Origin: Escherichia coli
Lineage (GTDB): Bacteria > Pseudomonadota > Gammaproteobacteria > Enterobacterales > Enterobacteriaceae
Length of the DNA stretch: 64,000 bases
Strand: one strand, 5' to 3'
Assembly: GCF_011045215.1 (NCBI RefSeq)
Contig: NZ_CP049201.1
In this document: one piece after another, positions 13,183 to 52,931 of the stretch
How positions within the stretch are numbered: the first letter of the stretch is position 1
Layout: each line of letters begins with the position of its first letter
The notes under the pieces: model-generated
Told to the model about the DNA's origin: nothing
The model's input: only the letters and a program-made list of their open reading frames with translations
Database searches by the model: none
Position numbers and translations under genes: made by a program

Positions 13183-13267
13183 GCCGAAGTGGCGAAATCG
13201 GTAGACGCAGTTGATTCAAAATCAACCGTAGAAATACGTGCCGGTTCGAGTCCGGCCTTCGGCACCA
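13183..13267 (+). tRNA. leuX: tRNA-Leu (anticodon CAA)
   Basis: 85-nt sequence GCCGAAGTGGCGAAATCGGTAGACGC...TTCGAGTCCGGCCTTCGGCACCA with CAA anticodon loop, long variable arm and encoded CCA end. Confidence 0.93.
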
Positions 13268-13456: not shown

Positions 13457-14707
13457 ATGGCACTTACTGATATCAAAGTTAGGACTACCAAGCCCTCCGA
13501 CAAACCTTTCAAACTCACAGATGGGCAGGGTATGCACCTGCTGATCAACCCCAATGGTTCAAAATACTGGCGACTCCAATACCGTTTCGATGGCAAACAG
13601 AAAGTTTTAGCATTGGGTGTTTATCCAATGGTCTCTCTTGGTGAAGCTCGCAGGAAACGAGATGAGGCTAAAAAGTTGGTATCTGATGGTATCGACCCTT
13701 CCGAGAAGAAAAAGGCAGACAAGATCGAGCAGAGCGAAGCTCTTACTTTTGAATCTGTTGCCAGGGACTGGCATAAGGCTTGTAAAAGGAAATGGTCAGA
13801 TTCCCATAGCGAGAGAGTTCTAAAAAGCATGGAAGATGGTCTCTTTACTGCTCTTGGTAAAAGAAAAATATCCGAGCTTAATACCAGAGATCTTCTTGCC
13901 CCTATCAAGGCTGTTGAAGCTTCTGGGCGACTGGAAGTTGCTTCCCGCCTACAGCAAAGAACAACGGCAGTGATGCGATATGCTGTCCAGAACGGGCTGA
14001 TAGATTACAACCCTGCCCAGGAGATGGCAGGAGCTATTGCAGTAGCTAAAAGAGTCCACAGGCCAGCTTTGCCATTCGAACGATTCTCAGAACTTTTAGA
14101 ACGAATTGATAGTTTCAAGGGTAGAAAACTCACGAAGTTAGCCGTAAAGCTGACATTGCTCATTTTCATTCGTTCCAGTGAACTTAGGTTTGCTCGTTGG
14201 TCAGAGATAGATTTCGACAATGCCATGTGGACTATCCCTGGGGAACGTGAGCCATTGCCAGGGGTCAAACATTCTCATCGAGGCTCAAAAATGAAGACAC
14301 CACACCTCGTGCCGTTAAGTCGCCAGGCTATAGAACTCCTCAAAGCTATCAAAGAAATCAGCGGTGAATGTGAACTTGTATTCATTGGTGATCATGATTT
14401 TAGAAAGCCTATGAGTGAAAACACGGTAAACAAGGCTTTAAGGTCTATGGGCTACGACACTACGGTTGAAGTATGTGGACATGGTTTTCGTGCGATGGCA
14501 TGTAGTGCGTTGATCGAATCGGGAAAATGGTCAAGGGATGCTGTTGAACGGCAGATGAGCCACCAAGAGCGAAACTCCGTTCGTGCTGCCTACATTCATA
14601 AAGCAGAACACCTTGATGAAAGAAGGCTTATGTTGCAGTGGTGGGCTGATTACCTTAATGCCTTGAAAGATAGGTTTATCAGTCCCTTTGATTTTACAAC
14701 AAAGTAG
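13457..14707 (+). CDS. P4-family tyrosine integrase
   Basis: 416-aa ORF adjacent to the tRNA; N-terminal KPFKLTDGQGMHLLINPNGSKYWRLQYRFDGK arm-binding region and a C-terminal catalytic domain typical of P4-like integrases. Confidence 0.9.
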   Translation: MALTDIKVRTTKPSDKPFKLTDGQGMHLLINPNGSKYWRLQYRFDGKQKVLALGVYPMVSLGEARRKRDEAKKLVSDGIDPSEKKKADKIEQSEALTFESVARDWHKACKRKWSDSHSERVLKSMEDGLFTALGKRKISELNTRDLLAPIKAVEASGRLEVASRLQQRTTAVMRYAVQNGLIDYNPAQEMAGAIAVAKRVHRPALPFERFSELLERIDSFKGRKLTKLAVKLTLLIFIRSSELRFARWSEIDFDNAMWTIPGEREPLPGVKHSHRGSKMKTPHLVPLSRQAIELLKAIKEISGECELVFIGDHDFRKPMSENTVNKALRSMGYDTTVEVCGHGFRAMACSALIESGKWSRDAVERQMSHQERNSVRAAYIHKAEHLDERRLMLQWWADYLNALKDRFISPFDFTTK

Positions 14708-14794: not shown

Positions 14795-15934
14795 ATGTCC
14801 ACAATTAACCCCGCAATTTTTTCTTTTTTCTCTGGTTCAGGATTTCTTGATCTTGGATTTGAAAAAAATGGTTATGAAGTGGTTTTCGTGAATGAATACC
14901 ATGCTCCGTTTATGGATGCATATAAACATTCGAGGAAAAAATTAAATATAGCACCACCTCGTTTTGGGTATGCAGAGTGCAGTATTGAAGATGTAGAACA
15001 TGAAAAAATTAAGTCTTCTATGCTTCAACTTAAAAATGAGGGGCGATTGACTGGATTTATTGGTGGTCCACCATGCCCGGATTTCTCTGTAGCGGGTAAA
15101 AATAAAGGTCGAGATGGTGAAAACGGTCGGCTTTCACAAAGCTATATTGATATCATTCTTGAAATGAAACCAGATTTCTTTCTTTTTGAGAATGTTAAAG
15201 GTCTATACCGTACCAGTAAACATAGGGAATTTTTTGACCATTTAAAAACTCAATTAGAATCGGTTGGTTATTGTTTGCATGAAAAACTAATAAATTCTAT
15301 TGAATATGGTGCTCCTCAAGATAGGCAACGAATCATATTGATTGGTTTCCTTGATGAAAAATATGCAAGCCAATTCAATTGGGGGCAAAGAGTCTACCCT
15401 GAAAGAACTGCATTTGAATATAAATGGCCGACGACAAACCAATTTTCAGAAAACACTTCTGTTATAAAACCAAAGGGTATCCCAGAAGAGTTAACAGTAG
15501 AGCATTGGTTCAAGAAAAACCAGGTTGATAATCATCCAAATGCAAAGCATGTATTCGCGGCAAGAGCAGGGCTTGCGAGGTTTTTGACTGTCGAAGAAGG
15601 GGATGATAGTAAAAAATCCTATAAAAGGTTACATAGATGGAGATTTTCACCAACTGCTGCTTACGGTAATAATGAGGTACATTTACATCCTTATAAACCA
15701 AGAAGAATTACTGTTGCCGAAGCATTAGCAATTCAGTCTTTACCAAAAGAATTTGAATTACCTGCTTATATGACTCTGTCTAATATGTTTAAAACTGTCG
15801 GTAACGGTGTACCCTACTTAGCAGCGGCCGGTATTGCCAAATCTATTATAGAGCATTTAGGAATCGAATATGAGAGTAACTGCGGCGAACTTAGCACAGG
15901 CGATTGCCAATCTACCAAGAAACACGCAGTTTAA
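14795..15934 (+). CDS. DNA (cytosine-5)-methyltransferase
   Basis: Motif I FSGSGF, motif IV GGPPCPDFS, motif VI ENV and motif VIII QDRQR, in the canonical order. Confidence 0.85.
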   Translation: MSTINPAIFSFFSGSGFLDLGFEKNGYEVVFVNEYHAPFMDAYKHSRKKLNIAPPRFGYAECSIEDVEHEKIKSSMLQLKNEGRLTGFIGGPPCPDFSVAGKNKGRDGENGRLSQSYIDIILEMKPDFFLFENVKGLYRTSKHREFFDHLKTQLESVGYCLHEKLINSIEYGAPQDRQRIILIGFLDEKYASQFNWGQRVYPERTAFEYKWPTTNQFSENTSVIKPKGIPEELTVEHWFKKNQVDNHPNAKHVFAARAGLARFLTVEEGDDSKKSYKRLHRWRFSPTAAYGNNEVHLHPYKPRRITVAEALAIQSLPKEFELPAYMTLSNMFKTVGNGVPYLAAAGIAKSIIEHLGIEYESNCGELSTGDCQSTKKHAV

Positions 15935-18893: not shown

Positions 18894-20156
18894 TTGAAAT
18901 ATAAAATAAAAAGATTGAAGAATAAAGATGGTATCAGAAGTTGCATTATTATTAATGAGAGCAACGGATTACCCTTGGTTTATTCTAACTTATATATGAG
19001 TGTTATTTCACGAACAAATAGCTATTCATTTTCAACAATGGAAGCAATAGCAAATGCTTTGCTTTTATTTGAAAGATATAATGCTTACATGAATGTGGAT
19101 GTTTTTGATATGGTAAATCCTGACATCGAAAAACTTGTCTCGAACAAAGGATATTTATTCGGGTTAATGAATGCCCTTTCTTACAGAAACGACTTAGAGA
19201 ATGTTACAAGCATTCTTAAAGAACAACATGTCTCTAAAAGAACCCTTTATTTCAAGATAATGACAATTGAAAATTACGTCAAATGGTTTTTTGATAACAT
19301 TGCTATCAATAATATTGATTCTTCTCGTTATGAAGCAATCAGTCGAGCATTTGATTTTATAAAGCCAAGAATAGAGAACGGAAAGAATTACAATATTGAA
19401 AGCGAAAGCAAATCATTGACAAATGAGCAAGTTACAACTTTGACTGATATGGTAAGTGTTAAATCTAAGATTAATCCATTTTCGGAGCATGTAAGGTTTC
19501 GAAATAATCTAATAATTAAAATTTTATTAGAGACAGGTATTAGGGGAGGGGAACTACTTAATATTAAGTTGGTTGATTTTGACTATGTCCACAAAAGTCT
19601 ATGCATAGTAAGAAGGCCAGATGATCAAAACGAACCACGATTAAGGCAACCATTGGTTAAAACTTTAGAAAGAAAAATACCATTGAGTATAGAATTGACT
19701 GAGTTAATACAGAATTATATTAGTGATTTCAGAGGTAAGCAGTGTCATGCAGGGGAGCATGACTATCTGCTTGTTACTCATAGCAGTAAAGGTCAATTAG
19801 GTCATGCATTAACTATTTCAGGTTATCAGAAAATTTTCGAACAAATTAGGAAAAATAGTAATGTTTTGAGCGATATTGTGGGGCATTCGCTAAGACATAC
19901 TTGGAATGTGAAATTCTCAGAAATGATGCTCATGAATTCGAACTCTCAGGAATATATTACTTATGAGAAAGTAAGAAATTATCTTATGGGGTGGAAAAAG
20001 AATAGTACAACCTCAGATATCTATAACCAAGCATTTATAGCACAAGAAAGCCGAAAAATAATGGCTGTTATTAATCCACTCAAAAACATAGTAGAGGACA
20101 AATCCAATGTTTCAAACTCTAAGAAAGCTACAAGAAAGTCAATATTCGGTTTTTGA
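18894..20156 (+). CDS. Tyrosine recombinase-like protein A (first of three tandem genes)
   Basis: 420 aa, probable TTG start; catalytic-domain elements TGIRGGE (Arg box), HSLRHT and a C-terminal Tyr (TSDIY). Confidence 0.75.
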   Translation: MKYKIKRLKNKDGIRSCIIINESNGLPLVYSNLYMSVISRTNSYSFSTMEAIANALLLFERYNAYMNVDVFDMVNPDIEKLVSNKGYLFGLMNALSYRNDLENVTSILKEQHVSKRTLYFKIMTIENYVKWFFDNIAINNIDSSRYEAISRAFDFIKPRIENGKNYNIESESKSLTNEQVTTLTDMVSVKSKINPFSEHVRFRNNLIIKILLETGIRGGELLNIKLVDFDYVHKSLCIVRRPDDQNEPRLRQPLVKTLERKIPLSIELTELIQNYISDFRGKQCHAGEHDYLLVTHSSKGQLGHALTISGYQKIFEQIRKNSNVLSDIVGHSLRHTWNVKFSEMMLMNSNSQEYITYEKVRNYLMGWKKNSTTSDIYNQAFIAQESRKIMAVINPLKNIVEDKSNVSNSKKATRKSIFGF

Positions 20157-21432
20157 AACCAAGGATGGTAATTTCAAAGTGAACTTTTCTTATTCCAAGT
20201 GGAAGATAAGTGAAAGTATAACATTGAACATTGATTCTTTAAGAGTGGTCATCAGTGCATATATACCTATCAAAACCACTTTGGCATATTTCGCTATAAA
20301 TTATAGTGCCAGTTATACTAAGAAAATGTTTTATGCAGTAAAGCATTACATTAAGGCCTGTAATACGAATGATAGCTTGTTTTCTAAAGATTGCATAAAG
20401 TATTACTATAAAGTTGTGAGCTCATTAGATTACACACATGCAGAGACAGTCAAATATTTTTTTATGAAGATGAGTGGTCTTTACCCATCTTTGTTTTCGG
20501 CAGAAGCAATCATATTTTTAGAAAATATTAAAGTTAAAAAAACAAATGCAAACAAGTCTATAAAGACACATGATTATAAAAAAGGTCCCTTTAGTGACTC
20601 GCAATTAAAGGTAATTATAGATTCTGTAGCGATAGCTTATAAGGAAGAAAAGGTAAGTCTGTCAAACTATCTGCTAACCTTCCTTGTTGCATATTCCGGG
20701 CGGCGACCTATGCAAATATCTCAACTTGAAGCTGGTGATCTCTTTGCTTTTAATGGAGAGTACTTTCTCAATATCCCAAGAATTAAACAACGAAATGGAT
20801 ATAGAAAAGAGTTTAGAAAATTACAAATTCCAGAAGAGCTTTTTAGCCAATTGACATATCTCGTTGAAGCTGTGAATTCGCTGGTCAGTGACACATTAAA
20901 AATCGATTTAAGTGAAAAACAAAAGAGAAAACTACCAATTTTTATAAACACATATCCATTCAAAAAAGGATGTGTTGAGCTAAACATGATTGAAAGTGGT
21001 GGATTAAAACTTAACCCCTATGCCATAACACTAAAAATAAGGAACACTATAAATCGTTCAATAAATGAATATCAAGCCTATCTGGGGTGTATAAATTCGC
21101 GCAGATTTAGATATTCATTAGGCACTAAGGTTGCACAATTGGGTTATAGTCCTTCACTGATAGCAAATGTTTTGGACCATTCTTCAATCAATTCTGTTAT
21201 GAGTTATATAGAAAATACAGCGGAAAATGGCAAGAGAATTAATGAAGCTGTAAATGAACTAATGAAGCCACTGGCTAACAAATTTATTGAGGGAAAAGAG
21301 CTTCAGAAAGAGTTAGATTCTTTGAAGCATTTGATAGAAGAATACTGCGGTGGATATAAAACTAACTCTTTTGATAATACAGCAATATCGTTAGTAACTA
21401 ATTCTATCGACGATATGATCAATAGCATTTAA
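20107..21432 (+). CDS. Tyrosine recombinase-like protein B (second of three)
   Basis: 441 aa; AYSGRRPMQISQLE Arg box, box II RRFRYSLGT with Arg in place of the usual first His, and a C-terminal Tyr (VMSYI); GAGGA ribosome-binding site; overlaps gene A by 50 nt. Confidence 0.7.
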   Translation: MFQTLRKLQESQYSVFETKDGNFKVNFSYSKWKISESITLNIDSLRVVISAYIPIKTTLAYFAINYSASYTKKMFYAVKHYIKACNTNDSLFSKDCIKYYYKVVSSLDYTHAETVKYFFMKMSGLYPSLFSAEAIIFLENIKVKKTNANKSIKTHDYKKGPFSDSQLKVIIDSVAIAYKEEKVSLSNYLLTFLVAYSGRRPMQISQLEAGDLFAFNGEYFLNIPRIKQRNGYRKEFRKLQIPEELFSQLTYLVEAVNSLVSDTLKIDLSEKQKRKLPIFINTYPFKKGCVELNMIESGGLKLNPYAITLKIRNTINRSINEYQAYLGCINSRRFRYSLGTKVAQLGYSPSLIANVLDHSSINSVMSYIENTAENGKRINEAVNELMKPLANKFIEGKELQKELDSLKHLIEEYCGGYKTNSFDNTAISLVTNSIDDMINSI

Positions 21433-25259: not shown

Positions 25260-26405
25260 CTATAAACGAATTTTTATCGCCTTGTTTAAAGGTTTCATTG
25301 CGTAGATATTTGAGAAGGTCGTGTGTGTTTTGTGAAGAATGGTCTTACCAAAGCTTCTCAGAAGCTCGATGTAATGCTTTATGGAAGCAAGCCACTCTAC
25401 GAATCTGAGATGCTTTTGCCGTTGTACTGCATTTTTTTGAAGAATCTTTCCTACGATTTCGTTTCGTTTGTCTTCTCTAAGCCGTAATTCCAGTTCTGCA
25501 ATTTTTTCAACGATACTTTCCTTTCTCTCAGTGGTTTTCAACACTGTTGCAGGAGCAGGAGCAGCAGGTTGGTCTTTTGTCGATATGTCGCTTCGTAGAG
25601 CTTCTAAGTGGTCGGGGTTGTAGTTAAGCCGATTACTGAGATTTGCCCAGGAGTAGCTCTTGCCCAATTGTGAAGCTTTGAAAGCTATGCCTGTGTATTC
25701 GAAAGAGAAGCCGTTCATTTTACCGGTAGAGGCAATATTGGCCTTCCAAGATACTTCAGCTTCTTCCAGCCTCTTGATAAAAGTTAGAAGGTCCGGCTTA
25801 TCAGATAAACTTTTATCAAGTATCTGCTGCAGAGCTTCTCTTGGTGAAAGCACCCCGGTTCGTTCCGATAGCATTTTCTCATTACGGGACACTCTCTTCC
25901 GCTTCGGTTGTGCTTGCGAGGGGGGAGATGCAGTTTTGGTCACTGTCAGGCCATGAGCGATTTCGAGTTTACTGATGATCTGTGTGCTGATGAGGTTTTC
26001 GTTCCTACCCAAGTAGAGCTTCCCACCATTGAGATCTATGCGACTTGCGATAATGTGTATGTGCTGGCCATCGTCGTCATGAAGCACATAGCAACGAAGG
26101 TGAGTATCCCTGAACCCCATCCTCTTCATGTAGTCATCTGCGATAATGGACCACTGTTCATTCGTTAGTGTTTCACCGTCGGGTAAGCGAAGTGAGTTGT
26201 GCCAAACGGGTTTTGCGACATCTAGGCGAAGATGCTTGGTGCTATCGAATTCAGCGATCATTTCAACGGCTGAATCACTTAACATGTTCCCGCCAATGAC
26301 GACTGGATCGCTTTTGTGGTGTGCTCCCGATTGTAATACATAACGAACAACACCAGCGAAGCTCTTACCCCTCTTGATCTTCCGCATACCCTTCACGAGG
26401 GACAC
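25260..26405 (-). CDS. Relaxase (MobA/VirD2-type mobilisation nuclease)
   Basis: 381 aa; three-histidine motif HDDDGQHIHII typical of the relaxase/mobilisation nuclease domain; overlaps the upstream mobC-like gene. Confidence 0.75.
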   Translation of the reverse strand: MSLVKGMRKIKRGKSFAGVVRYVLQSGAHHKSDPVVIGGNMLSDSAVEMIAEFDSTKHLRLDVAKPVWHNSLRLPDGETLTNEQWSIIADDYMKRMGFRDTHLRCYVLHDDDGQHIHIIASRIDLNGGKLYLGRNENLISTQIISKLEIAHGLTVTKTASPPSQAQPKRKRVSRNEKMLSERTGVLSPREALQQILDKSLSDKPDLLTFIKRLEEAEVSWKANIASTGKMNGFSFEYTGIAFKASQLGKSYSWANLSNRLNYNPDHLEALRSDISTKDQPAAPAPATVLKTTERKESIVEKIAELELRLREDKRNEIVGKILQKNAVQRQKHLRFVEWLASIKHYIELLRSFGKTILHKTHTTFSNIYAMKPLNKAIKIRL

Positions 26406-26885: not shown

Positions 26886-28049
26886 TTAAGGATGATCTAT
26901 TGAAACAAACTTTTGACTAAACTCCAGCCATCTTGCATTATCAACATCCTTCACAAAAGCAATCAGACCTGCGACATGATTGTAAAAGCCAATTGGAGAG
27001 TCAAATTTTTCATGTCTTGCAACTTCTGAGAGACCAAATTTTTTTATTGAGTAAAGGTGGCGTTCAATACGTTTATAAGTTTGTTTAGATAATCGAGGGA
27101 CATTGCCATCAACAAGTAATCCTAAAACTATTTTTTTTGAACCAGGTCCAGCTACTCTTATTTTGCTTACGTTTTCTTTGAAATGGTGCTTACGAATGAT
27201 GCTGATAATGTTATTTTGTATTTTTCCAACCGAAACACCGTCGGGTAGAGTACCACCGCAGGATAATGTTATATCATCAGCATATCGAGTATAAGTGAAG
27301 CCATATTTATTAGCATATTCAGATAGAGAAATATCTAACTTTACAGTGGCTAAATTACTAAGCATTGGGCTACTCGGTGCCCCTTGAGGTAGCACTCCTA
27401 ACGGCCATGGTTCTGATATGTCCCAAAAAAGGCTCTTCTCTTTATTTTGTCCGTAAAGCTTATATTCCTTAGTTGAGTGCTTAGGAACAGAAATTAGAGA
27501 TTGTAAATGTTGTGGTAAACGTATAGTTGTGCATAGCCTTGATAGTTCAAATGCTATTAATGGCCGATATCCAGCATTTTTAAAAACCATATAAACATCA
27601 GATTCATTTATTGAATAAAAGAAATCGGAAATGTCGAATTGGAAGAGCCATTTAGCACCACAATGCTGTTCTGCACATTTTCTGATGCCACCATTAGGAT
27701 GGAAAGCAAAAGAAGTATTATGGGGAACTAACTTTTTTAATATTTCACTATTGATGAAATGCTGTACTTTAAATATCTCGCCAGTTACAGCATGAATATG
27801 GCGTCTTCCACCTGAACGTTTTTTTATAGCAAACATGCGATAATTTGCTGATTCACGGCGGCGTGATACAGTGGATCGTAGCAAGCGATAATCAACACCA
27901 GTAATTTTTGAAAGATGGCGTAATGTAAAAATTACAGGGAGATTATTTTTCTTCAGATTACTTGCATAATTTCTTAAGTTTAGAGCCTGTGTCTTCCCTA
28001 AGGATGACTCTGCATTTTGATAAAGTTGGTGTGCTGACCAGATTTCCAT
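26886..28049 (-). CDS. Reverse transcriptase, retron-type or defence-associated
   Basis: 387 aa; motifs FDISDFFYSI, LPQGAPSSP, catalytic YADD, and a thumb-like KIRVAGPGSKKIVLGLLV; no maturase, endonuclease or other extra domain. Confidence 0.85.
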   Translation of the reverse strand: MEIWSAHQLYQNAESSLGKTQALNLRNYASNLKKNNLPVIFTLRHLSKITGVDYRLLRSTVSRRRESANYRMFAIKKRSGGRRHIHAVTGEIFKVQHFINSEILKKLVPHNTSFAFHPNGGIRKCAEQHCGAKWLFQFDISDFFYSINESDVYMVFKNAGYRPLIAFELSRLCTTIRLPQHLQSLISVPKHSTKEYKLYGQNKEKSLFWDISEPWPLGVLPQGAPSSPMLSNLATVKLDISLSEYANKYGFTYTRYADDITLSCGGTLPDGVSVGKIQNNIISIIRKHHFKENVSKIRVAGPGSKKIVLGLLVDGNVPRLSKQTYKRIERHLYSIKKFGLSEVARHEKFDSPIGFYNHVAGLIAFVKDVDNARWLEFSQKFVSIDHP

Positions 28050-28237: not shown

Positions 28238-29458
28238 TCACTCATCATTGTTTAACGGCTGAACGGAGTGCTGATCAGCACACCAAGACTCTGGAATGTA
28301 AAGACCAAAATCCCATACACTATCGTTTTTAACATGCCTAGAATTTACAAGTATGTCAAGTCCGAATTTAGATAATCGTTTTTGAGTTGTCAATAGTCCT
28401 AATGTCTCTGCATATATGAGTAGTTTTTCTACATACGAACAATCAACATTCAAACGTAAGGCAATGCTTTTGTTATCTCTGACACCTCTTTTTATAAGTT
28501 TTAGTAAATTTATAATTTCGGGAGATAAAGATGAATGGGGGGAAGTGTTATGCTTTGTTCCATTTTCTAACAAGGCAAGCAGCCATCCTGGAATTGCTCT
28601 ATCAGGCATTAGTCCTTGCCATTTTTTATTAGAAAACCATAGTATTCCAGGAAGGTTATTAGGGACGCTATGATAAAAAATTATATTAGATAAAACATTA
28701 CCATAGCCAAGACGAGCCCATGGAGGAATTTTGGTTTGATTTTTACAAAGATTGATTATTTCATTATACTGCTCACCCCACCGAGTTTCTAACCAATTTT
28801 CATTATATACGATGTTACTTATGAAATTGATTTTTTCAGATTTTCTATATTTTCTTACTCCATGGTCTGAGCCGCGAATAGTATTGATTATTCTATTTTC
28901 AGAACCTAGTGTTCTGGCGAAAGAAATTAAAGTTAATCTTACTAGTCCTAAACTCCACCAACTTAAAAAGGTAGGGTTATCGAGCATGGCATTAATAAAT
29001 CCGGATACTCTATCACCACTACCAATCGAATCATCAATAAGTAAAAAATCGTTGACTTTAGATTTTTTCAGATCATTGAGTGATGGATGATCTAAAAACA
29101 TAGTTTTATTAGACCGCACAAGGTTTGAAATAATTGAATATACTAAGTCTTCGCTACCTTGCGAATGACCTGGTCTATTAACAACATCACCATTAAGGTC
29201 CCATAATACTTGTTTGTCTGGATCTAATTTGCGAACTGAATAAAGGGCATAATTTTTATTTTTTGGTAAATCAGAAATGCTCTTTTGAAGCCATATGGTA
29301 AACTCATCTCTACTTACAAAAGTTAACTTGCTCAAGATGTTTTTTGCAATCGCTTTTTGGCTGCTATTAAATTGCATAAGCCATTGAGCTATTTCCTGAG
29401 AGGATTCAATTTTTTCTACTGAAAGTATTTTAAATTTAGGTTTGTCTCTTGTTTTCAT
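28238..29458 (-). CDS. Phosphoribosyltransferase-like protein with a C-terminal helix-turn-helix region (candidate effector)
   Basis: 406 aa; PRPP-binding-type motif FLLIDDSIGSGDRVSG in the N-terminal half; HTH-like KSIALRLNVDCSYVEKLLIYAETLGLL near the C-terminus. Confidence 0.65.
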   Translation of the reverse strand: MKTRDKPKFKILSVEKIESSQEIAQWLMQFNSSQKAIAKNILSKLTFVSRDEFTIWLQKSISDLPKNKNYALYSVRKLDPDKQVLWDLNGDVVNRPGHSQGSEDLVYSIISNLVRSNKTMFLDHPSLNDLKKSKVNDFLLIDDSIGSGDRVSGFINAMLDNPTFLSWWSLGLVRLTLISFARTLGSENRIINTIRGSDHGVRKYRKSEKINFISNIVYNENWLETRWGEQYNEIINLCKNQTKIPPWARLGYGNVLSNIIFYHSVPNNLPGILWFSNKKWQGLMPDRAIPGWLLALLENGTKHNTSPHSSLSPEIINLLKLIKRGVRDNKSIALRLNVDCSYVEKLLIYAETLGLLTTQKRLSKFGLDILVNSRHVKNDSVWDFGLYIPESWCADQHSVQPLNNDE

Positions 29459-32682: not shown

Positions 32683-34599
32683 TCAATTACCCTCATTAGC
32701 ATTAACAATCTTAATGCCTGTGCTTTGTTCAAGAATTTTCGCAAAAGAATTGAATCTATATAATATAGTTATTTTCTTTCCTGTTGAGGTAGAGATAGAG
32801 TCCTTAAACCCTCGCTCTGCTTCAATGTAAGTCTGTGAATCCCATGTGGCATATTCTTTTGAATTGCTATCAATAGCAGAATAAAGGGTATCAACCAATT
32901 TATCAGAATTTTTCAGCAATAACTCTTCTTGTTCCTCAGTAACATAATAGAAATAGTAAATTATCACTTCATAAAGTTGCTTACTTATAGGTGATGTATT
33001 AGAGCCAATCTCTTTTATGAAAGCTAAATCACCGAAAACATCATAGGCGAGGTTTAAAGCCCTCAAATATTTTCTTTCTATTTGAAGATACTCGTTGCAT
33101 TCATTCGAAATGTACGCACTTCCTAAATCTATTTCTTTTTCGTTTAATAAGTTTAATTTATATAGATTTAAGTTTTCCATGGCTTTTGATAAAAACTTAT
33201 CATAGGAATTAAAATTATAATTTTTAAAGCCAATATTTATAAATGCAAGAGCAGCAAGGCAAAGCTCCATATCCTTTTGTCTATCAGGCTTAACCTTACC
33301 ATGCGTTGCTTGTTTGAATTCGTTTTTGGATGCCAGATACCGTAAAAACTTAACACTTGAACCTTGATTCAGGGCCGAACGAATTTCTTGATCACTTAAC
33401 TTAACACCATATGTATTGATACGGTGGAATAATTCAACTATGAGATCAGTGCTATCTTTATTCATTTCTATAAAGTAAGCCGTGATTTCATATTCTCTTA
33501 TGGCTCTTTGTTCAGTGCGAGTAAGCTCACCAAACTCTTTACCATTTAAATCCTCAAGGATATCAAGTTTAGAAAGTTTAAATTCTCCACTCATAAAATC
33601 ATAAATTGTTGTGATCCGTTGTAAACCATCAACAACGACCCACTTATCTTCTGCGATTCGATTACCAAAATAAAATACAGGAAGTGGGAGTTTTAAGAGA
33701 ATAGACTCGATTAATTTAGACTTCTTCTCATTATTCCAAATACGATCTTTTCTTTGGAAGTCAGGTTGTAGTTCAATATCACCAAAATGAACCCGATCAA
33801 AAATGAGAGATAAAACCGGAGTCTTGGAGGTAATTCTTGCAACACCAAGTTTAGCTTGTAGAGTTTTTAATTCCAAGTTCAACTGTGATGATGTTGTATC
33901 ATTTTCACCCTCATCTACTCCATAAGTATTGGGTGACTCTATAAGTTCTTCTACAGTAGTATTATTACTAATTTTTAATGTTGGCACCTCTATATTATAA
34001 TCAAGAGTCACAACTGAGTTAGCCATATCTGCGGAAAGCTCTTTAAATCTATTAAGAGTAACCTCAACCATTTTTGAAGCAATTTCAGATGGGAATTTCT
34101 TCAAAACTATTTGATAAGCATCATCAAGGCTTTGAACTAATTCAACCTGCTGTTCATAAATTTTCCCAAGATTCAAATTGAGAAAATTATCAATTTTTTT
34201 TCTTAAAACCCTAAATTCAGAGCCTTGAACTTCTGATAATGTCGCTGCTTCATGGACATTATGACTACGCAATAACAGGTGTTTTTTGTTTTCATACTTG
34301 AAATGTTGAATATAGGGTAAGTTAGCAAATATTGTTTCTGGTTGGTTCCTGCTCGAAGAACTACCGTAAAGAACCTGCTCTACATTACAAAAACCTCTAA
34401 TATTTAAATTGCTGTAAATCGATTCAAGCTCTGATAATGAACGTGTTTTAGATTCAGAATTAGAAGAGACTTTATATTTACCGTTTTCACGATCAATGCT
34501 TATAATACATAGTGGAGGCGTAGAAGGATTAATTGGCTGTAGCTGTTTGCCAAAAAGAAGATTTTCGATGTCGTTTAGCACTTGTTCAAAGTTAAGCAT
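32683..34599 (-). CDS. DUF262 (ParB-like nuclease fold) domain protein
   Basis: 638 aa; central QPDFQRKDRIWNNEK...VVDGLQRITTI matches the DUF262 IPxFQR and DGQQR signatures. Confidence 0.7.
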   Translation of the reverse strand: MLNFEQVLNDIENLLFGKQLQPINPSTPPLCIISIDRENGKYKVSSNSESKTRSLSELESIYSNLNIRGFCNVEQVLYGSSSSRNQPETIFANLPYIQHFKYENKKHLLLRSHNVHEAATLSEVQGSEFRVLRKKIDNFLNLNLGKIYEQQVELVQSLDDAYQIVLKKFPSEIASKMVEVTLNRFKELSADMANSVVTLDYNIEVPTLKISNNTTVEELIESPNTYGVDEGENDTTSSQLNLELKTLQAKLGVARITSKTPVLSLIFDRVHFGDIELQPDFQRKDRIWNNEKKSKLIESILLKLPLPVFYFGNRIAEDKWVVVDGLQRITTIYDFMSGEFKLSKLDILEDLNGKEFGELTRTEQRAIREYEITAYFIEMNKDSTDLIVELFHRINTYGVKLSDQEIRSALNQGSSVKFLRYLASKNEFKQATHGKVKPDRQKDMELCLAALAFINIGFKNYNFNSYDKFLSKAMENLNLYKLNLLNEKEIDLGSAYISNECNEYLQIERKYLRALNLAYDVFGDLAFIKEIGSNTSPISKQLYEVIIYYFYYVTEEQEELLLKNSDKLVDTLYSAIDSNSKEYATWDSQTYIEAERGFKDSISTSTGKKITILYRFNSFAKILEQSTGIKIVNANEGN

Positions 34600-34799: not shown

Positions 34800-34822
34800 G
34801 TTCGAGTCCGGCCTTCGCACCA
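34800..34822 (+). repeat. Direct repeat of the leuX 3' end (attR-like island boundary)
   Basis: gttcgagtccggccttcgcacca matches tRNA positions 13244-13267 with one missing G. Confidence 0.8.
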
Positions 34823-44178: not shown

Positions 44179-44781
44179 ATGAAGAATAAGGCTGATAACA
44201 AAAAAAGGAACTTCCTGACCCATAGTGAAATCGAATCACTCCTTAAAGCAGCAAATACCGGGCCTCATGCAGCACGTAATTATTGTCTGACTTTGCTTTG
44301 TTTTATTCATGGTTTCCGGGCGAGTGAAATTTGTCGATTGAGGATTTCGGATATTGATCTTAAGGCAAAGTGTATATATATCCATCGATTAAAAAAAGGC
44401 TTTTCAACAACGCACCCGCTATTGAACAAAGAAGTTCAGGCTTTAAAAAACTGGTTGAGTATCCGTACTTCGTACCCGCATGCTGAGAGCGAGTGGGTAT
44501 TTTTATCGCGTAAGGGTAATCCGCTTTCTCGGCAACAGTTTTACCATATTATCTCGACTTCCGGTGGTAATGCCGGGTTGTCACTGGAGATTCATCCGCA
44601 CATGTTACGCCATTCGTGTGGTTTTGCTTTGGCGAATATGGGAATAGATACGCGACTTATCCAGGATTATCTTGGGCATCGCAATATTCGTCATACTGTC
44701 TGGTATACCGCCAGCAATGCAGGGCGTTTTTACGGCATCTGGGATAGAGCCAGAGGACGACAGCGTCACGCTGTTTTATAG
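44179..44781 (+). CDS. fimB: Type 1 fimbriae switch recombinase FimB
   Basis: 200 aa from MKNKADNKK; tyrosine recombinase; matches K-12 FimB. Confidence 0.95.
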   Translation: MKNKADNKKRNFLTHSEIESLLKAANTGPHAARNYCLTLLCFIHGFRASEICRLRISDIDLKAKCIYIHRLKKGFSTTHPLLNKEVQALKNWLSIRTSYPHAESEWVFLSRKGNPLSRQQFYHIISTSGGNAGLSLEIHPHMLRHSCGFALANMGIDTRLIQDYLGHRNIRHTVWYTASNAGRFYGIWDRARGRQRHAVL

Positions 44782-45258: not shown

Positions 45259-45855
45259 GTGAGTAAACGTCGTTATCTTACCGGTAAAGAAGTTCAGGCC
45301 ATGATGCAGGCGGTTTGTTACGGGGCAACGGGAGCCAGAGATTATTGTCTTATTCTGTTGGCATATCGGCATGGGATGCGTATTAGTGAACTGCTTGATC
45401 TGCATTATCAGGATCTTGACCTTAATGAAGGTCGAATAAATATTCGCCGACTGAAGAACGGATTTTCTACCGTTCACCCGTTACGTTTTGATGAGCGTGA
45501 AGCTGTGGAACGCTGGACCCTGGAACGTGCTAACTGGAAAGGCGCTGACCGGACCGACGCCATATTTATTTCTCGCCGCGGGAGTCGGCTTTCTCGCCAG
45601 CAGGCCTATCGCATTATTCGTGATGCCGGTATTGAAGCTGGAACCGTAACGCAGACTCATCCTCATATGTTAAGGCATGCTTGCGGTTATGAACTGGCGG
45701 AGCGTGGTGCCGATACCCGTTTAATTCAGGATTATCTCGGGCATCGAAATATTCGCCATACTGTGCGTTATACCGCCAGTAATGCTGCTCGTTTTGCCGG
45801 ATTATGGGAAAGAAATAATCTCATAAACGAAAAATTAAAAAGAGAAGAGGTTTGA
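45259..45855 (+). CDS. fimE: Type 1 fimbriae switch recombinase FimE
   Basis: 198 aa, GTG start; paralog of FimB (HPHMLRH..., RHTVRYTAS); matches K-12 FimE. Confidence 0.95.
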   Translation: MSKRRYLTGKEVQAMMQAVCYGATGARDYCLILLAYRHGMRISELLDLHYQDLDLNEGRINIRRLKNGFSTVHPLRFDEREAVERWTLERANWKGADRTDAIFISRRGSRLSRQQAYRIIRDAGIEAGTVTQTHPHMLRHACGYELAERGADTRLIQDYLGHRNIRHTVRYTASNAARFAGLWERNNLINEKLKREEV

Positions 45856-45902
45856 TTTAACTTATTGATAATAAAGTTAAAAAACAAATAAATACAAGAC
45901 AA

Positions 45903-46216
45903 TTGGGGCCAAACTGTCCATATCATAAATAAGTTACGTATTTTTTCTCAAGCATAAAAATTTTAAAAAACGACAAAAATCATCTAACTGTTTGATATGT
46001 AAATTATTTCTCTTGTAAATTAATTTCACATCACCTCCGCTATATGTAAAGCTAACGTTTCTGTGGCTCGACGCATCTTCCTCATTCTTCTCTCCAAAAA
46101 CCACCTCATGCAATATAAAAATCTATAAATAAAGATAATAACAGAATATTAAGCTAACAAATAAACTGAAAAAGTTTGTGCGCGATGCTTTCCTCTATGA
46201 GTCAAAATGGCCCCAA
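45903..46216. promoter_or_regulatory. fimS: fimS invertible promoter element (fim switch), apparently phase-OFF
   Basis: 314-bp element bounded by 9-bp inverted repeats ttggggcca (45903-45911) and tggccccaa (46208-46216); the sigma70-like promoter lies next to the left repeat on the minus strand. Confidence 0.85.
45921..45951 (-). promoter_or_regulatory. Sigma70-like promoter inside fimS, directed toward fimE
   Basis: Minus strand reads TTGAGA (-35), an 18-nt spacer, then TATGATA (-10, reverse complement of 45921-45927). Confidence 0.55.
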
Positions 46217-46335
46217 ATGTTTCATCTTTTGGGGGAAAACTGTGCAGTGTTGGCAGTCAAACTCGTTGACAAAACAAAGTGTACAGAACGACTGCCCATG
46301 TCGATTTAGAAATAGTTTTTTTAAAGGAAAGCAGC

Positions 46336-46884
46336 ATGAAAATTAAAACTCTGGCAATCGTTGTTCTGTCGGCTCTGTCCCTCAGTTCCGCAGCGGCTCT
46401 GGCCGATACTACGACGGTAAATGGTGGGACCGTTCACTTTAAAGGGGAAGTTGTTAATGCCGCTTGCGCAGTTGATGCAGGCTCTGTTGATCAAACCGTT
46501 CAGTTAGGTCAGGCTCGTACCGCTTCGCTGGACCAGGATGGAGCGACCAGCTCTGCTGTCGGTTTTAACATTCAGCTGAATGATTGCGATACCGATGTTG
46601 CAAGCAAAGCTGCTGTTGCCTTCTTAGGTACAACAATTGACACGAATCATACCAACGTACTGGCTCTGCAGAGTTCTGCTGCGGGTAGCGCAACAAACGT
46701 TGGTGTACAGATCCTGGATAAAACAGGAGCTGCGTTGGCGCTGGATGGTGCGTCATTTAGTGCACAAACAACCCTGAATAACGGAACCAACACCATTCCG
46801 TTCCAGGCGCGTTATTATGCAATTGGTGCCGCAACCCCTGGCGCAGCTAATGCGGATGCGACCTTCAAGGTTCAGTATCAATAA
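46336..46884 (+). CDS. fimA: Type 1 fimbrial major subunit FimA
   Basis: 182 aa from [14 protein letters not shown]; signal peptide and pilin fold; conserved C-terminus FKVQYQ. Confidence 0.95.
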
Positions 46885-46948
46885 CCTACCCAGGTTCAGG
46901 GACGTCATTACGGGCAGGGATGCCCACCCTTGTGCGATAAAAATAACG

Positions 46949-47488
46949 ATGAAAAGGAAGAGATTATTTCTATTAGCGTCGTTGCTGCCAATGTTTGCTC
47001 TGGCCGGAAATAAATGGAATACCACGCTGCCCGGCGGAAATATGCAATTTCAGGGCGTCATTATTGCGGAAACTTGCCGGATTGAAGCCGGTGATAAACA
47101 AATGACGGTCAATATGGGGCAAATCAGCAGTAACCGGTTTCATGCGGTAGGGGAAGATAGCGCACCGGTGCCTTTTGTTATTCATTTACGGGAATGTAGC
47201 ACGGTGGTGAGTGAACGTGTAGGTGTGGCGTTTCACGGTGTCGCGGATGGTAAAAATCCGGATGTGCTTTCCGTGGGAGAGGGGCCAGGGATAGCCACCA
47301 ATATTGGCGTAGCGTTGTTTGATGATGAAGGAAACCTCGTACCGATTAATCGTCCTCCAGCAAACTGGAAACGGCTTTACTCAGGCTCTACTTCGCTACA
47401 TTTCATCGCCAAATATCGTGCTACCGGGCGTCGGGTTACTGGCGGCATCGCCAATGCCCAGGCCTGGTTCTCTTTAACCTATCAGTAA
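46949..47488 (+). CDS. fimI: Fimbrial protein FimI
   Basis: 179 aa from [13 protein letters not shown]; pilin-like, ends FSLTYQ. Confidence 0.88.
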
Positions 47489-47524: not shown

Positions 47525-48250
47525 GTGAGTAATAAAAACGTCAATGTAAGGAAATCGCAGGAAATAACATTCTGCTTGCTGGCAGGTATCCTGATGTTCA
47601 TGGCAATGATGGTTGCCGGACGCGCTGAAGCGGGAGTGGCCTTAGGTGCGACTCGCGTAATTTATCCGGCAGGGCAAAAACAAGTGCAACTTGCCGTGAC
47701 AAATAATGATGAAAATAGTACCTATTTAATTCAATCATGGGTGGAAAATGCCGATGGTGTAAAGGATGGTCGTTTTATCGTGACGCCTCCTCTGTTTGCG
47801 ATGAAGGGAAAAAAAGAGAATACCTTGCGTATTCTTGATGCAACAAATAACCAATTGCCACAGGATCGGGAAAGTTTATTCTGGATGAATGTTAAAGCGA
47901 TTCCGTCAATGGATAAATCAAAATTGACTGAGAATACGCTACAGCTCGCAATTATCAGCCGCATTAAACTGTACTATCGCCCGGCTAAATTAGCGTTGCC
48001 ACCCGATCAGGCCGCAGAAAAATTAAGATTTCGTCGTAGCGCGAATTCTCTGACGCTGATCAACCCGACACCCTATTACCTGACGGTAACAGAGTTGAAT
48101 GCCGGAACTCGGGTTCTTGAAAATGCCTTGGTGCCTCCAATGGGCGAAAGCACGGTTAAATTGCCTTCTGATGCGGGAAGCAATATTACTTACCGAACAA
48201 TAAATGATTATGGCGCACTTACCCCAAAAATGACGGGCGTAATGGAATAA
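47525..48250 (+). CDS. fimC: Periplasmic pilus chaperone FimC
   Basis: 241 aa, GTG start; PapD-like chaperone matching E. coli FimC. Confidence 0.95.
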   Translation: MSNKNVNVRKSQEITFCLLAGILMFMAMMVAGRAEAGVALGATRVIYPAGQKQVQLAVTNNDENSTYLIQSWVENADGVKDGRFIVTPPLFAMKGKKENTLRILDATNNQLPQDRESLFWMNVKAIPSMDKSKLTENTLQLAIISRIKLYYRPAKLALPPDQAAEKLRFRRSANSLTLINPTPYYLTVTELNAGTRVLENALVPPMGESTVKLPSDAGSNITYRTINDYGALTPKMTGVME

Positions 48251-48316: not shown

Positions 48317-50953
48317 ATGTCATATCTGAATTTAAGACTTTACCAGCTAAACACACAATGCTTGCATATTCGTAAGCATCGTTTGGCTGGTTTTTTTGTC
48401 CGGCTCGTTGTCGCCTGTGCTTTTGCCGCACAGGCACCTTTGTCATCTGCCGAACTCTATTTTAACCCGCGTTTTTTAGCGGATGATCCCCAGGCTGTGG
48501 CTGATTTATCGCGTTTTGAAAATGGGCAAGAATTACCGCCAGGGACGTATCGCGTCGATATCTATTTGAATAATGGTTATATGGCAACGCGTGATGTCAC
48601 ATTTAATACGGGCGACAGTGAACAAGGGATTGTTCCCTGCCTGACACGCGCGCAACTTGCCAGTATGGGGCTGAATACGGCTTCTGTCTCCGGTATGAGT
48701 CTGCTGGCGGATGATGCCTGCGTGCCATTAACCACAATGATCCATGACGCTACTGCGCATTTAGATGTTGGTCAGCAGCGACTCAACCTGACGATCCCTC
48801 AGGCATTTATGAGTAATCGCGCGCGTGGTTATATTCCTCCTGAGTTATGGGATCCCGGTATTAATGCCGGATTGCTCAATTATAATTTCAGCGGAAATAG
48901 TGTACAGAATCGGATTGGGGGTAACAGCCATTATGCATATTTAAACCTACAGAGTGGGTTAAATATTGGTGCGTGGCGTTTACGCGACAATACCACCTGG
49001 AGTTATAACAGTAGCGACAGATCATCAGGTAGCAAAAATAAATGGCAGCATATCAATACCTGGCTTGAGCGAGACATAATTCCTTTACGTTCCCGGCTAA
49101 CGCTGGGTGATGGTTATACTCAGGGCGATATTTTCGATGGTATTAACTTTCGCGGCGCACAATTGGCCTCAGATGACAATATGTTACCCGATAGCCAAAG
49201 AGGATTTGCCCCGGTGATCCACGGTATTGCTCGTGGTACTGCACAGGTCACTATTAAACAAAATGGGTATGACATTTATAATAGTACGGTGCCACCGGGG
49301 CCTTTTACCATCAACGATATCTATGCCGCAGGTAATAGTGGTGACTTGCAGGTAACAATTAAAGAGGCTGACGGCAGCACGCAGATTTTTACCGTACCCT
49401 ATTCGTCAGTCCCGCTTTTGCAACGTGAAGGGCATACTCGTTATTCCATTACGGCAGGAGAATACCGTAGTGGAAATGCGCAGCAGGAAAAACCCCGCTT
49501 TTTCCAGAGTACATTACTCCACGGCCTTCCGGCTGGCTGGACAATATATGGTGGAACGCAACTGGCGGATCGTTATCGTGCTTTTAATTTCGGTATCGGG
49601 AAAAACATGGGGGCACTGGGCGCTCTGTCTGTGGATATGACGCAGGCTAATTCCACACTTCCCGATGACAGTCAGCATGACGGACAATCGGTGCGTTTTC
49701 TCTATAACAAATCGCTCAATGAGTCAGGCACGAATATTCAGTTAGTGGGTTACCGTTATTCGACCAGCGGATATTTTAATTTCGCTGATACAACATACAG
49801 TCGAATGAATGGCTACAACATCGAAACACAGGATGGAGTTATTCAGGTTAAGCCGAAATTCACCGACTATTACAACCTCGCTTATAACAAACGCGGGAAA
49901 TTACAGCTCACCGTTACTCAGCAACTCGGGCGCACATCAACACTGTATTTGAGTGGTAGCCATCAAACTTATTGGGGAACGAGTAATGTCGATGAGCAAT
50001 TCCAGGCTGGATTAAATACTGCGTTCGAAGATATCAACTGGACGCTCAGCTATAGCCTGACGAAAAACGCCTGGCAAAAAGGACGGGATCAGATGTTAGC
50101 GCTTAACGTCAATATTCCTTTCAGCCACTGGCTGCGTTCTGACAGTAAATCTCAGTGGCGACATGCCAGTGCCAGCTACAGCATGTCACACGATCTCAAC
50201 GGTCGGATGACCAATCTGGCTGGTGTATACGGTACGTTGCTGGAAGACAACAACCTCAGCTATAGCGTGCAAACCGGCTATGCCGGGGGAGGCGATGGTA
50301 ATAGCGGAAGTACAGGCTACGCCACGCTGAATTATCGCGGTGGTTACGGCAATGCCAATATCGGTTACAGCCATAGCGATGATATTAAGCAGCTCTATTA
50401 CGGAGTCAGCGGTGGGGTACTGGCTCATGCCAATGGCGTAACGCTGGGGCAGCCGTTAAACGATACGGTGGTACTTGTTAAAGCGCCTGGCGCAAAAGAT
50501 GCAAAAGTCGAAAACCAGACGGGGGTGCGTACCGACTGGCGCGGTTATGCCGTGCTGCCTTATGCCACCGAATATCGGGAAAACAGAGTGGCGCTGGATA
50601 CCAATACCCTGGCTGATAACGTCGATTTAGATAACGCGGTCGCTAACGTTGTTCCCACTCGTGGGGCGATCGTGCGAGCAGAGTTTAAAGCGCGCGTTGG
50701 GATAAAACTGCTCATGACGCTAACCCACAATAATAAGCCGCTGCCGTTTGGGGCGATGGTGACATCAGAGAGTAGCCATAGTAGCGGCATTGTTGCGGAT
50801 AATGGTCAGGTTTACCTCAGCGGAATGCCTCTAGCGGGAAAAGTTCAGGTGAAATGGGGAGAAGAGGAAAATGCTCATTGTGTCGCCAATTATCAACTGC
50901 CACCAGAGAGTCAGCAGCAGTTATTAACCCAGCTATCAGCTGAATGTCGTTAA
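48317..50953 (+). CDS. fimD: Outer-membrane usher FimD
   Basis: 878-aa usher protein matching E. coli FimD. Confidence 0.96.
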   Translation: MSYLNLRLYQLNTQCLHIRKHRLAGFFVRLVVACAFAAQAPLSSAELYFNPRFLADDPQAVADLSRFENGQELPPGTYRVDIYLNNGYMATRDVTFNTGDSEQGIVPCLTRAQLASMGLNTASVSGMSLLADDACVPLTTMIHDATAHLDVGQQRLNLTIPQAFMSNRARGYIPPELWDPGINAGLLNYNFSGNSVQNRIGGNSHYAYLNLQSGLNIGAWRLRDNTTWSYNSSDRSSGSKNKWQHINTWLERDIIPLRSRLTLGDGYTQGDIFDGINFRGAQLASDDNMLPDSQRGFAPVIHGIARGTAQVTIKQNGYDIYNSTVPPGPFTINDIYAAGNSGDLQVTIKEADGSTQIFTVPYSSVPLLQREGHTRYSITAGEYRSGNAQQEKPRFFQSTLLHGLPAGWTIYGGTQLADRYRAFNFGIGKNMGALGALSVDMTQANSTLPDDSQHDGQSVRFLYNKSLNESGTNIQLVGYRYSTSGYFNFADTTYSRMNGYNIETQDGVIQVKPKFTDYYNLAYNKRGKLQLTVTQQLGRTSTLYLSGSHQTYWGTSNVDEQFQAGLNTAFEDINWTLSYSLTKNAWQKGRDQMLALNVNIPFSHWLRSDSKSQWRHASASYSMSHDLNGRMTNLAGVYGTLLEDNNLSYSVQTGYAGGGDGNSGSTGYATLNYRGGYGNANIGYSHSDDIKQLYYGVSGGVLAHANGVTLGQPLNDTVVLVKAPGAKDAKVENQTGVRTDWRGYAVLPYATEYRENRVALDTNTLADNVDLDNAVANVVPTRGAIVRAEFKARVGIKLLMTLTHNNKPLPFGAMVTSESSHSSGIVADNGQVYLSGMPLAGKVQVKWGEEENAHCVANYQLPPESQQQLLTQLSAECR

Positions 50954-50962
50954 GGGGGCGTG

Positions 50963-51493
50963 ATGAGAAACAAACCTTTTTATCTTCTGTGCGCTTTTTT
51001 GTGGCTGGCGGTAAGTCGCGTTTTGGCTGCGGATAGCACGATTACTATCCGCGGCTATGTCAGAGATAACGGCTGTAGTGTGGCCGCTGAATCAACCAAT
51101 TTTACTGTTGATCTGATGGAAAACGCGGCGAAGCAATTTAACAACATTGGCGCAACGACTCCTGTCGTTCCATTTCGTATTTTGCTGTCACCCTGTGGTA
51201 ACGCCGTTTCTGCCGTAAAGGTTGGGTTTACCGGCGTTGCAGATAGCCACAATGCCAACCTGCTTGCACTTGAAAATACGGTGTCAGCGGCTTCGGGATT
51301 GGGAATACAGCTTCTGAATGAGCAGCAAAATCAAATACCCCTTAATGCTCCATCGTCCGCGATTTCGTGGACGACCCTGACGCCGGGTAAACCAAATACG
51401 CTGAATTTTTACGCCCGGCTAATGGCGACACAGGTGCCTGTCACTGCGGGGCATATCAATGCCACGGCTACCTTCACTCTTGAATATCAGTAA
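50963..51493 (+). CDS. fimF: Fimbrial minor subunit FimF
   Basis: 176 aa from MRNKPFYLL; pilin-like, ends FTLEYQ. Confidence 0.92.
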
Positions 51494-51505
51494 CTGGAGA
51501 TGCTC

Positions 51506-52009
51506 ATGAAATGGCGCAAACGTGGGTATTTATTGGCGGCAATATTGGCGCTCGCAAGTGCGACGATACAGGCAGCCGATGTCACCATCACGGTGAACGG
51601 TAAGGTCGTCGCCAAACCGTGCACAGTTTCCACCACCAATGCCACGGTTGATCTCGGCGATCTTTATTCTTTCAGTCTGATGTCTGCCGGGGCGGCATCG
51701 GCCTGGCATGATGTTGCGCTTGAGTTGACTAATTGTCCGGTGGGAACGTCGAGGGTCACTGCCAGCTTCAGCGGGGCAGCCGACAGTACCGGATATTATA
51801 AAAACCAGGGGACCGCGCAAAACATCCAGTTAGAGCTACAGGATGACAGTGGCAACACATTGAATACTGGCGCAACCAAAACAGTTCAGGTGGATGATTC
51901 CTCACAATCAGCGCACTTCCCGTTACAGGTCAGAGCATTGACGGTAAATGGCGGAGCCACTCAGGGAACCATTCAGGCAGTGATTAGCATCACCTATACC
52001 TACAGCTGA
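51506..52009 (+). CDS. fimG: Fimbrial minor subunit FimG
   Basis: 167 aa from MKWRKRGYLLAAILAL; pilin-like. Confidence 0.92.
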   Translation: MKWRKRGYLLAAILALASATIQAADVTITVNGKVVAKPCTVSTTNATVDLGDLYSFSLMSAGAASAWHDVALELTNCPVGTSRVTASFSGAADSTGYYKNQGTAQNIQLELQDDSGNTLNTGATKTVQVDDSSQSAHFPLQVRALTVNGGATQGTIQAVISITYTYS

Positions 52010-52028: not shown

Positions 52029-52931
52029 ATGAAACGAGTTATTACCCTGTTTGCTGTACTGCTGATGGGCTGGTCGGTAAATGCCTGGTCATTCGCCTGT
52101 AAAACCGCCAATGGTACCGCTATTCCTATTGGCGGTGGCAGCGCTAATGTTTATGTAAACCTTGCGCCTGCCGTGAATGTGGGGCAAAACCTGGTCGTAG
52201 ATCTTTCGACGCAAATCTTTTGCCATAACGATTATCCGGAAACCATTACAGACTATGTCACACTGCAACGAGGCTCGGCTTATGGCGGCGTGTTATCTAA
52301 TTTTTCCGGGACCGTAAAATATAGTGGCAGTAGCTATCCATTTCCGACCACCAGCGAAACGCCGCGGGTTGTTTATAATTCGAGAACGGATAAGCCGTGG
52401 CCGGTGGCGCTTTATTTGACGCCTGTGAGCAGTGCGGGCGGGGTGGCGATTAAAGCTGGCTCATTAATTGCCGTGCTTATTTTGCGACAGACCAACAACT
52501 ATAACAGCGATGATTTCCAGTTTGTGTGGAATATTTACGCCAATAATGATGTGGTGGTGCCTACTGGCGGCTGCGATGTTTCTGCTCGTGATGTCACCGT
52601 TACTCTGCCGGACTACCCTGGTTCAGTGCCAATTCCTCTTACCGTTTATTGTGCGAAAAGCCAAAACCTGGGGTATTACCTCTCCGGCACAACCGCAGAT
52701 GCGGGCAACTCGATTTTCACCAATACCGCGTCGTTTTCACCAGCGCAGGGCGTCGGCGTACAGTTGACGCGCAACGGTACGATTATTCCAGCGAATAACA
52801 CGGTATCGTTAGGAGCAGTAGGGACTTCGGCGGTAAGTCTGGGATTAACGGCAAATTACGCACGTACCGGAGGGCAGGTGACTGCAGGGAATGTGCAATC
52901 GATTATTGGCGTGACTTTTGTTTATCAATAA
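52029..52931 (+). CDS. fimH: Mannose-specific fimbrial adhesin FimH
   Basis: 300 aa; FACKTANGTAIPIGGGSANVYVNLAPAVNVGQNLVVDLSTQIFCHNDYPETITDYV lectin domain followed by a pilin domain. Confidence 0.96.
   Translation: MKRVITLFAVLLMGWSVNAWSFACKTANGTAIPIGGGSANVYVNLAPAVNVGQNLVVDLSTQIFCHNDYPETITDYVTLQRGSAYGGVLSNFSGTVKYSGSSYPFPTTSETPRVVYNSRTDKPWPVALYLTPVSSAGGVAIKAGSLIAVLILRQTNNYNSDDFQFVWNIYANNDVVVPTGGCDVSARDVTVTLPDYPGSVPIPLTVYCAKSQNLGYYLSGTTADAGNSIFTNTASFSPAQGVGVQLTRNGTIIPANNTVSLGAVGTSAVSLGLTANYARTGGQVTAGNVQSIIGVTFVYQ

Follow-up and report, generated by a model that had tools for sequence, protein, structure and literature searches.

Published orientation assays applied in silico score the fim switch of a 64-kb Escherichia coli sequence as phase OFF

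The fim switch (fimS) is present in both orientations among complete Escherichia coli genomes, also within K-12, and any new sequence that carries it raises the question of which phase was captured and whether the element could still leave that phase. We asked this of the segment at positions 45903-46216 of a 64-kb stretch of E. coli DNA, hereafter the window. It should be noted that a single consensus sequence reports the majority orientation of the sequenced culture only, and the phase assigned below is to be read in that sense. The ON and OFF states were anchored on published assays, independently of any promoter motif.

The segment is bounded by perfect 9-bp inverted repeats, IRL, the left recombination site (TTGGGGCCA, 45903-45911, plus strand), and IRR on the right (TGGCCCCAA, the reverse complement of TTGGGGCCA, 46208-46216, plus strand). 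The first-pass annotation had reported both repeats as intact at these places, which is borne out; its description of them as 314 bp apart is right if the outer edges are meant, which enclose the full length of fimS, and is loose as a distance, since from start to start the repeats lie 305 bp apart. The TTGGGGCCA 9-mer occurs in only two copies on both strands of the entire 64-kb window, against 0.57 expected by chance, and these two are inverted relative to each other. A repeat search extended the pair to an imperfect inverted repeat of 22 nt (45890-45911 and 46208-46229, 77% complementary), with 296 nt between the extended arms. Separately, a 16-nt inverted repeat of 88% complementarity straddles IRL (45858-45873 and 45921-45936), its outer arm TAACTTATTGATAATA lying outside fimS and overlapping a consensus match for the IHF-1 site, and its inner arm TATCATAAATAAGTTA lying inside fimS and overlapping the -10 hexamer of the promoter motif described below.

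Alignment with the characterised K-12 element gives the segment its identity. The fimS of MG1655 (NC_000913.3, about 4542682-4542995) shares its length, repeats, flanking genes and OFF orientation with that of the window, to which it is colinear and identical at 306 of 314 positions, versus 95 of 314 when its reverse complement is compared. The eight substitutions (45962, 45980, 46012, 46120, 46139, 46142, 46155 and 46180) all fall outside the repeats and the promoter hexamers, and the promoter hexamers, IHF consensus matches and restriction sites of the MG1655 switch are identical to those of the window. Across six aligned fimS alleles, IRL, IRR and the flanks of the repeats are unchanged in every one, and the promoter hexamers are likewise invariant. 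We counted the element as real because this homology is joined by the expected context, a position between fimE and fimA; on its sequence we identify the segment at 45903-46216 as the canonical fim switch of E. coli.

The neighbouring genes, all on the plus strand, follow the order of the annotated MG1655 and 33F4 loci, with fimB and fimE immediately upstream of the switch and fimA beyond it. The fimB gene (44179-44781) encodes a tyrosine recombinase of 200 aa that inverts fimS in both directions, and its product is 100% identical to FimB of MG1655. The gene for the second tyrosine recombinase, fimE (45259-45855), whose product is biased towards ON-to-OFF inversion (PMC2647292), is intact at 198 aa, and differs from MG1655 FimE by one substitution at codon 88, Q88L. 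Downstream, a gap of 119 nt separates IRR from the start of fimA (46336-46884), an intact 182-aa open reading frame for the major type 1 fimbrial subunit, which is annotated as fimA in homologous loci and which represents a different allele from that of MG1655. The remaining open reading frames of the fimAICDFGH operon follow at 46949-47488, 47525-48250, 48317-50953, 50960-51493, 51500-52009 and 52029-52931, in the same order as in the annotated locus; the operon is intact downstream of the switch. A 35-nt small RNA, FimR2, is annotated 3' of fimA in MG1655, and an identical copy is present in the window at 46895-46929.

Two restriction assays with published fragment sizes were used to assign the phase; in-silico sizes were about 1 bp off the published values. 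In the HinfI assay with primers Phase_L and Phase_R, a fragment of 489 bp (next to one of 70 bp) denotes ON and one of about 359 bp (next to one of 200 bp) denotes OFF (PMC4349694). Both primers were designed for another strain and have three mismatches each to the window, from which they would yield an amplicon of 559 bp that HinfI divides into 358 and 201 bp, the OFF pattern; the site responsible (GAGTC, 46199-46203) adjoins IRR. The same digestion gives 359 and 201 bp for MG1655, again OFF, and 76 and 484 bp for the K-12 isolate PG20180175, which therefore scores ON. In the BstUI assay with primers OL4 and OL20, OFF is read from fragments of 539 and 187 bp and ON from fragments of 433 and 293 bp (PMC9993118). 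These sizes are ambiguous when taken without primer positions, as both assignments fit a 726-bp amplicon, and they were used only together with the primer sequences. Neither primer has a mismatch to the window, and the sole BstUI site of the OL20/OL4 amplicon (CGCG, 46181-46184) again adjoins IRR, giving 539 and 188 bp, the OFF pattern, compared with 540 and 188 bp in MG1655 and 294 and 434 bp in PG20180175.

A third line of evidence comes from the primers BSFORBIO and BSREVBIO, which are listed as gel-retardation probe primers and belong to the end of the switch described as the right one in phase OFF (PMC9993118), and from which the 135-bp probe used in Fis and Lrp gel shifts seems to have been made. 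In the window, as in MG1655, the two primers converge at a distance of 135 bp, a geometry that is not found in PG20180175. The window is colinear with a genome that scores OFF and inverse to one that scores ON. The proposal of the first-pass annotation that the switch lies in the OFF orientation is accordingly upheld by the HinfI and BstUI patterns, by the geometry of the probe primers and by colinearity with MG1655, and we hold with high confidence that this is a canonical fimS sequenced in phase OFF, as a snapshot of a switch rather than as a locked state; nothing in the analysis contradicts this reading.

The original argument for phase OFF had been drawn from a promoter-like motif, which was said to be the best sigma-70-like site in the element and to lie on the minus strand by the left repeat, pointing towards fimE. 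The motif, TTGAGA-N18-TATGAT(A), is found exactly so (45921-45951, minus strand), with TTGAGA at 45951-45946, an 18-nt spacer, TATGAT at 45927-45922 and the additional A at 45921, and it matches the consensus at 10 of 12 positions. We infer from its position and from secondary descriptions in the literature that it is the fimA promoter. The mapping of that promoter and of its transcription start is reportedly the work of Olsen and Klemm (1994). A consensus scan of 45700-46500 returned two sigma-70-like sites, the minus-strand motif being the better scoring, which in this AT-rich region is not above the 2.3 +/- 1.6 sites seen in shuffled sequences; with the count at chance level, a consensus match alone proves nothing. 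The second site, TTGATA-N18-TAAATT (45992-46021, plus strand, 9 of 12), was considered as a promoter facing fimA and was rejected, being no better than chance.

The position of the motif was also compared across genomes. In the window, MG1655, PS10-3 and O157:H7, TTGAGA-N18-TATGATA is found next to IRL on the minus strand; in the two genomes that score ON, PG20180175 and O55:H7 DEC5D, it is found next to IRR on the plus strand and faces fimA. Among the genomes compared, the 10/12 motif faces fimA solely in those that score ON, and this position, together with the literature, suggests that it is the mapped promoter. The first-pass annotation had offered alignment with both orientations as a check, and had named as refutation ON-phase references with TATGATA on the minus strand near the left repeat; neither ON-scoring genome has it there, and the proposal is not refuted. 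The two ON-scoring switches are inverted relative to fimE and fimA when compared with the window; both were deposited in phase ON. That of DEC5D is 99% identical to the switch of the window, and that of PG20180175, once reverse-complemented, matches the MG1655 switch at every position (314 of 314).

These data bear directly on the opposite reading, in which the switch is really ON and the promoter has been assigned to the wrong end. No evidence in favour of it was found. Its only opening would be the way in which the hexamers were assigned, by position and secondary descriptions with a scan that does not exceed chance, together with the weaker site at 45992-46021, which does face fimA. Against it, two published restriction assays with stated fragment sizes both score OFF, MG1655 and the probe primers that PMC9993118 gives for the right end in phase OFF are both colinear with the window, and the inverse arrangement is the one found in a K-12 isolate that has IS1 beside a shortened fimE, in which a drift to ON would be expected. 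The assays have in effect already refuted an ON assignment, unless the publications have the ON and OFF fragments the wrong way round, and we regard its likelihood as vanishingly small.

The phase-OFF assignment also agrees with how the two orientations are distributed among deposited sequences. We surveyed 5426 complete E. coli genomes, 4725 of which have the fim locus, using a 1-kb query with the switch at its centre and calling orientation where a match was colinear with 80% or more of that query. The orientation of the window was recovered in 4452 of the 4725 locus-bearing genomes (approximately 94%), and the inverse orientation, for which the query was the window with its 314 bp inverted in silico, in 250 (approximately 5%). 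The activity of FimE is dominant and most cells of ordinary cultures are afimbriate, and loss of FimE lets a population drift ON (literature including PMC2647292). With FimE activity dominant, an OFF majority among genomes is what one would expect, and OFF should prevail wherever FimE is functional. The ON-scoring isolate PG20180175 (NZ_CP043189.1, K-12 O16:H48, mouse gut) has an IS1A transposase gene directly upstream of a fimE shortened to 555 nt from 597 nt, a natural case of fimE disruption accompanying the ON state. The inversion of the fim promoter is itself a textbook case that was already known, and the state described here is the ordinary one, the commonest among deposited genomes.

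Known features of the switch suggest how the arrangement in the window would operate. FimB, acting in both directions, and FimE, acting from ON to OFF, would invert fimS by site-specific recombination within the repeats, and IHF, Lrp and Fis would help inversion by shaping the substrate. In the ON state the promoter, then beside the fimA-proximal repeat, would be expected to read through that repeat and on over the 119 nt that separate it from the fimA start codon. In the OFF state, as in the window, the promoter beside IRL would be directed at the 3' end of fimE and away from fimA, leaving the operon promoterless and presumably silent. The fimE transcript in the OFF orientation meets a Rho-dependent terminator inside fimS and is consequently shorter and destabilised (PMC2647292). 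For the strain sequenced here, we infer from the literature the effect of this terminator, the correspondence of the hexamers to the mapped promoter, and switching itself. As assembled, fimA is without a promoter and the majority of the source culture would have been afimbriate; anyone who predicts promoters or operons from this sequence for annotation should allow for an invertible element.

Candidate sites for the accessory proteins are present in the window where the literature places them. IHF-1 is known to adjoin IRL and IHF-2 to lie within fimS (PMC9993118), and candidates for each are present on the minus strand, TATCAATAAGTTA just outside IRL (45858-45870) and TATCAAACAGTTA inside fimS (45985-45997), both of which fit the consensus WATCAANNNNTTR, although matches to this consensus over the whole window are no more frequent than chance would allow (9 vs 5.6). 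In phase OFF, the right boundary is reported to lie 50 bp from a Fis site with LRP-2 nested inside it (PMC9993118). At 46144-46158 (plus strand), 49 nt from IRR, the window has GAATATTAAGCTAAC, a 15-mer that begins with G and ends with C, and its position and 15-mer form make it a candidate for the Fis/LRP-2 site. At the level of consensus, then, one candidate IHF site adjoins IRL, another is inside the switch, and a candidate Lrp/Fis site stands near the promoter-distal end.

Whether the OFF orientation might be fixed in this strain, through a mutation that blocks inversion, was weighed against the same sequence. Such a block could take the form of a recombinase defect or of a deletion like that of O157:H7, in which loss of 16 bp from fimS locks the switch OFF. 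The O157:H7 switch has its locus, repeats and OFF orientation in common with the window; in strain 8368 it is without 16 bp (alignment columns 90-105), whereas the window has all 314 bp and does not carry this deletion. Both repeats and the flanking half-site regions are identical to those of K-12, FimB is 100% identical to its K-12 counterpart, and FimE is full length. On the other side, strains with a full-length switch have been described as locked OFF, for example EPEC E2348/69, FimE carries Q88L, and the fimS allele has no identical copy among the 5426 complete E. coli genomes, the best match being 99.0% identical. Three substitutions within 17 bp (46139 T, 46142 C and 46155 T) set the window apart from its nearest alleles, and this stretch, 46139-46155, overlaps the presumed Fis/LRP-2 site; it is, however, polymorphic in other strains too, with O55:H7 and O157:H7 varying there. 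It is conceivable that the allele alters occupancy by Lrp or Fis and hence the ON/OFF bias, as a natural switch-bias variant, and we consider this quite improbable.

The tRNA gene leuX adds a further argument. FimB expression is said to depend on leuX, to go by the title of Ritter et al. 1997, and in the window leuX is intact despite the island inserted there, which again speaks against a locked switch. Since all of the parts needed for switching are intact, the OFF orientation is better understood as a snapshot of the majority state in a phase-variable population than as a locked one; as far as the sequence can tell, a locked switch appears unlikely, and an orientation fixed in this strain by mutation is given a very low chance.

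The leuX tRNA-Leu(CAA) gene (13183-13267) carries an inserted genomic island of approximately 21.5 kb, the region extending over 13183-34817; 18 nt from the 3' end of the tRNA (13244-13261) are repeated at 34800-34817, where the window becomes similar to other E. coli genomes again. According to Pfam, the island encodes a P4-type integrase (13457-14707), a C5 DNA methylase (14795-15934), two further tyrosine recombinases (18894-21432) and, on the minus strand, a MobA/VirD2 relaxase (25260-26405), a reverse transcriptase (26886-28049), an adjoining PRTase-CE/wHTH protein (28238-29458) and a GmrSD-N protein (32683-34599). The three tyrosine recombinases of the island were considered as possible agents acting on fimS and were set aside; at 416-441 aa, they are unlike the FimB-like proteins of about 200 aa. 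With this predicted content the island looks like a mobilisable defence island, in which the reverse transcriptase and the PRTase-CE/wHTH protein may form a retron-like or defence-RT-like pair.
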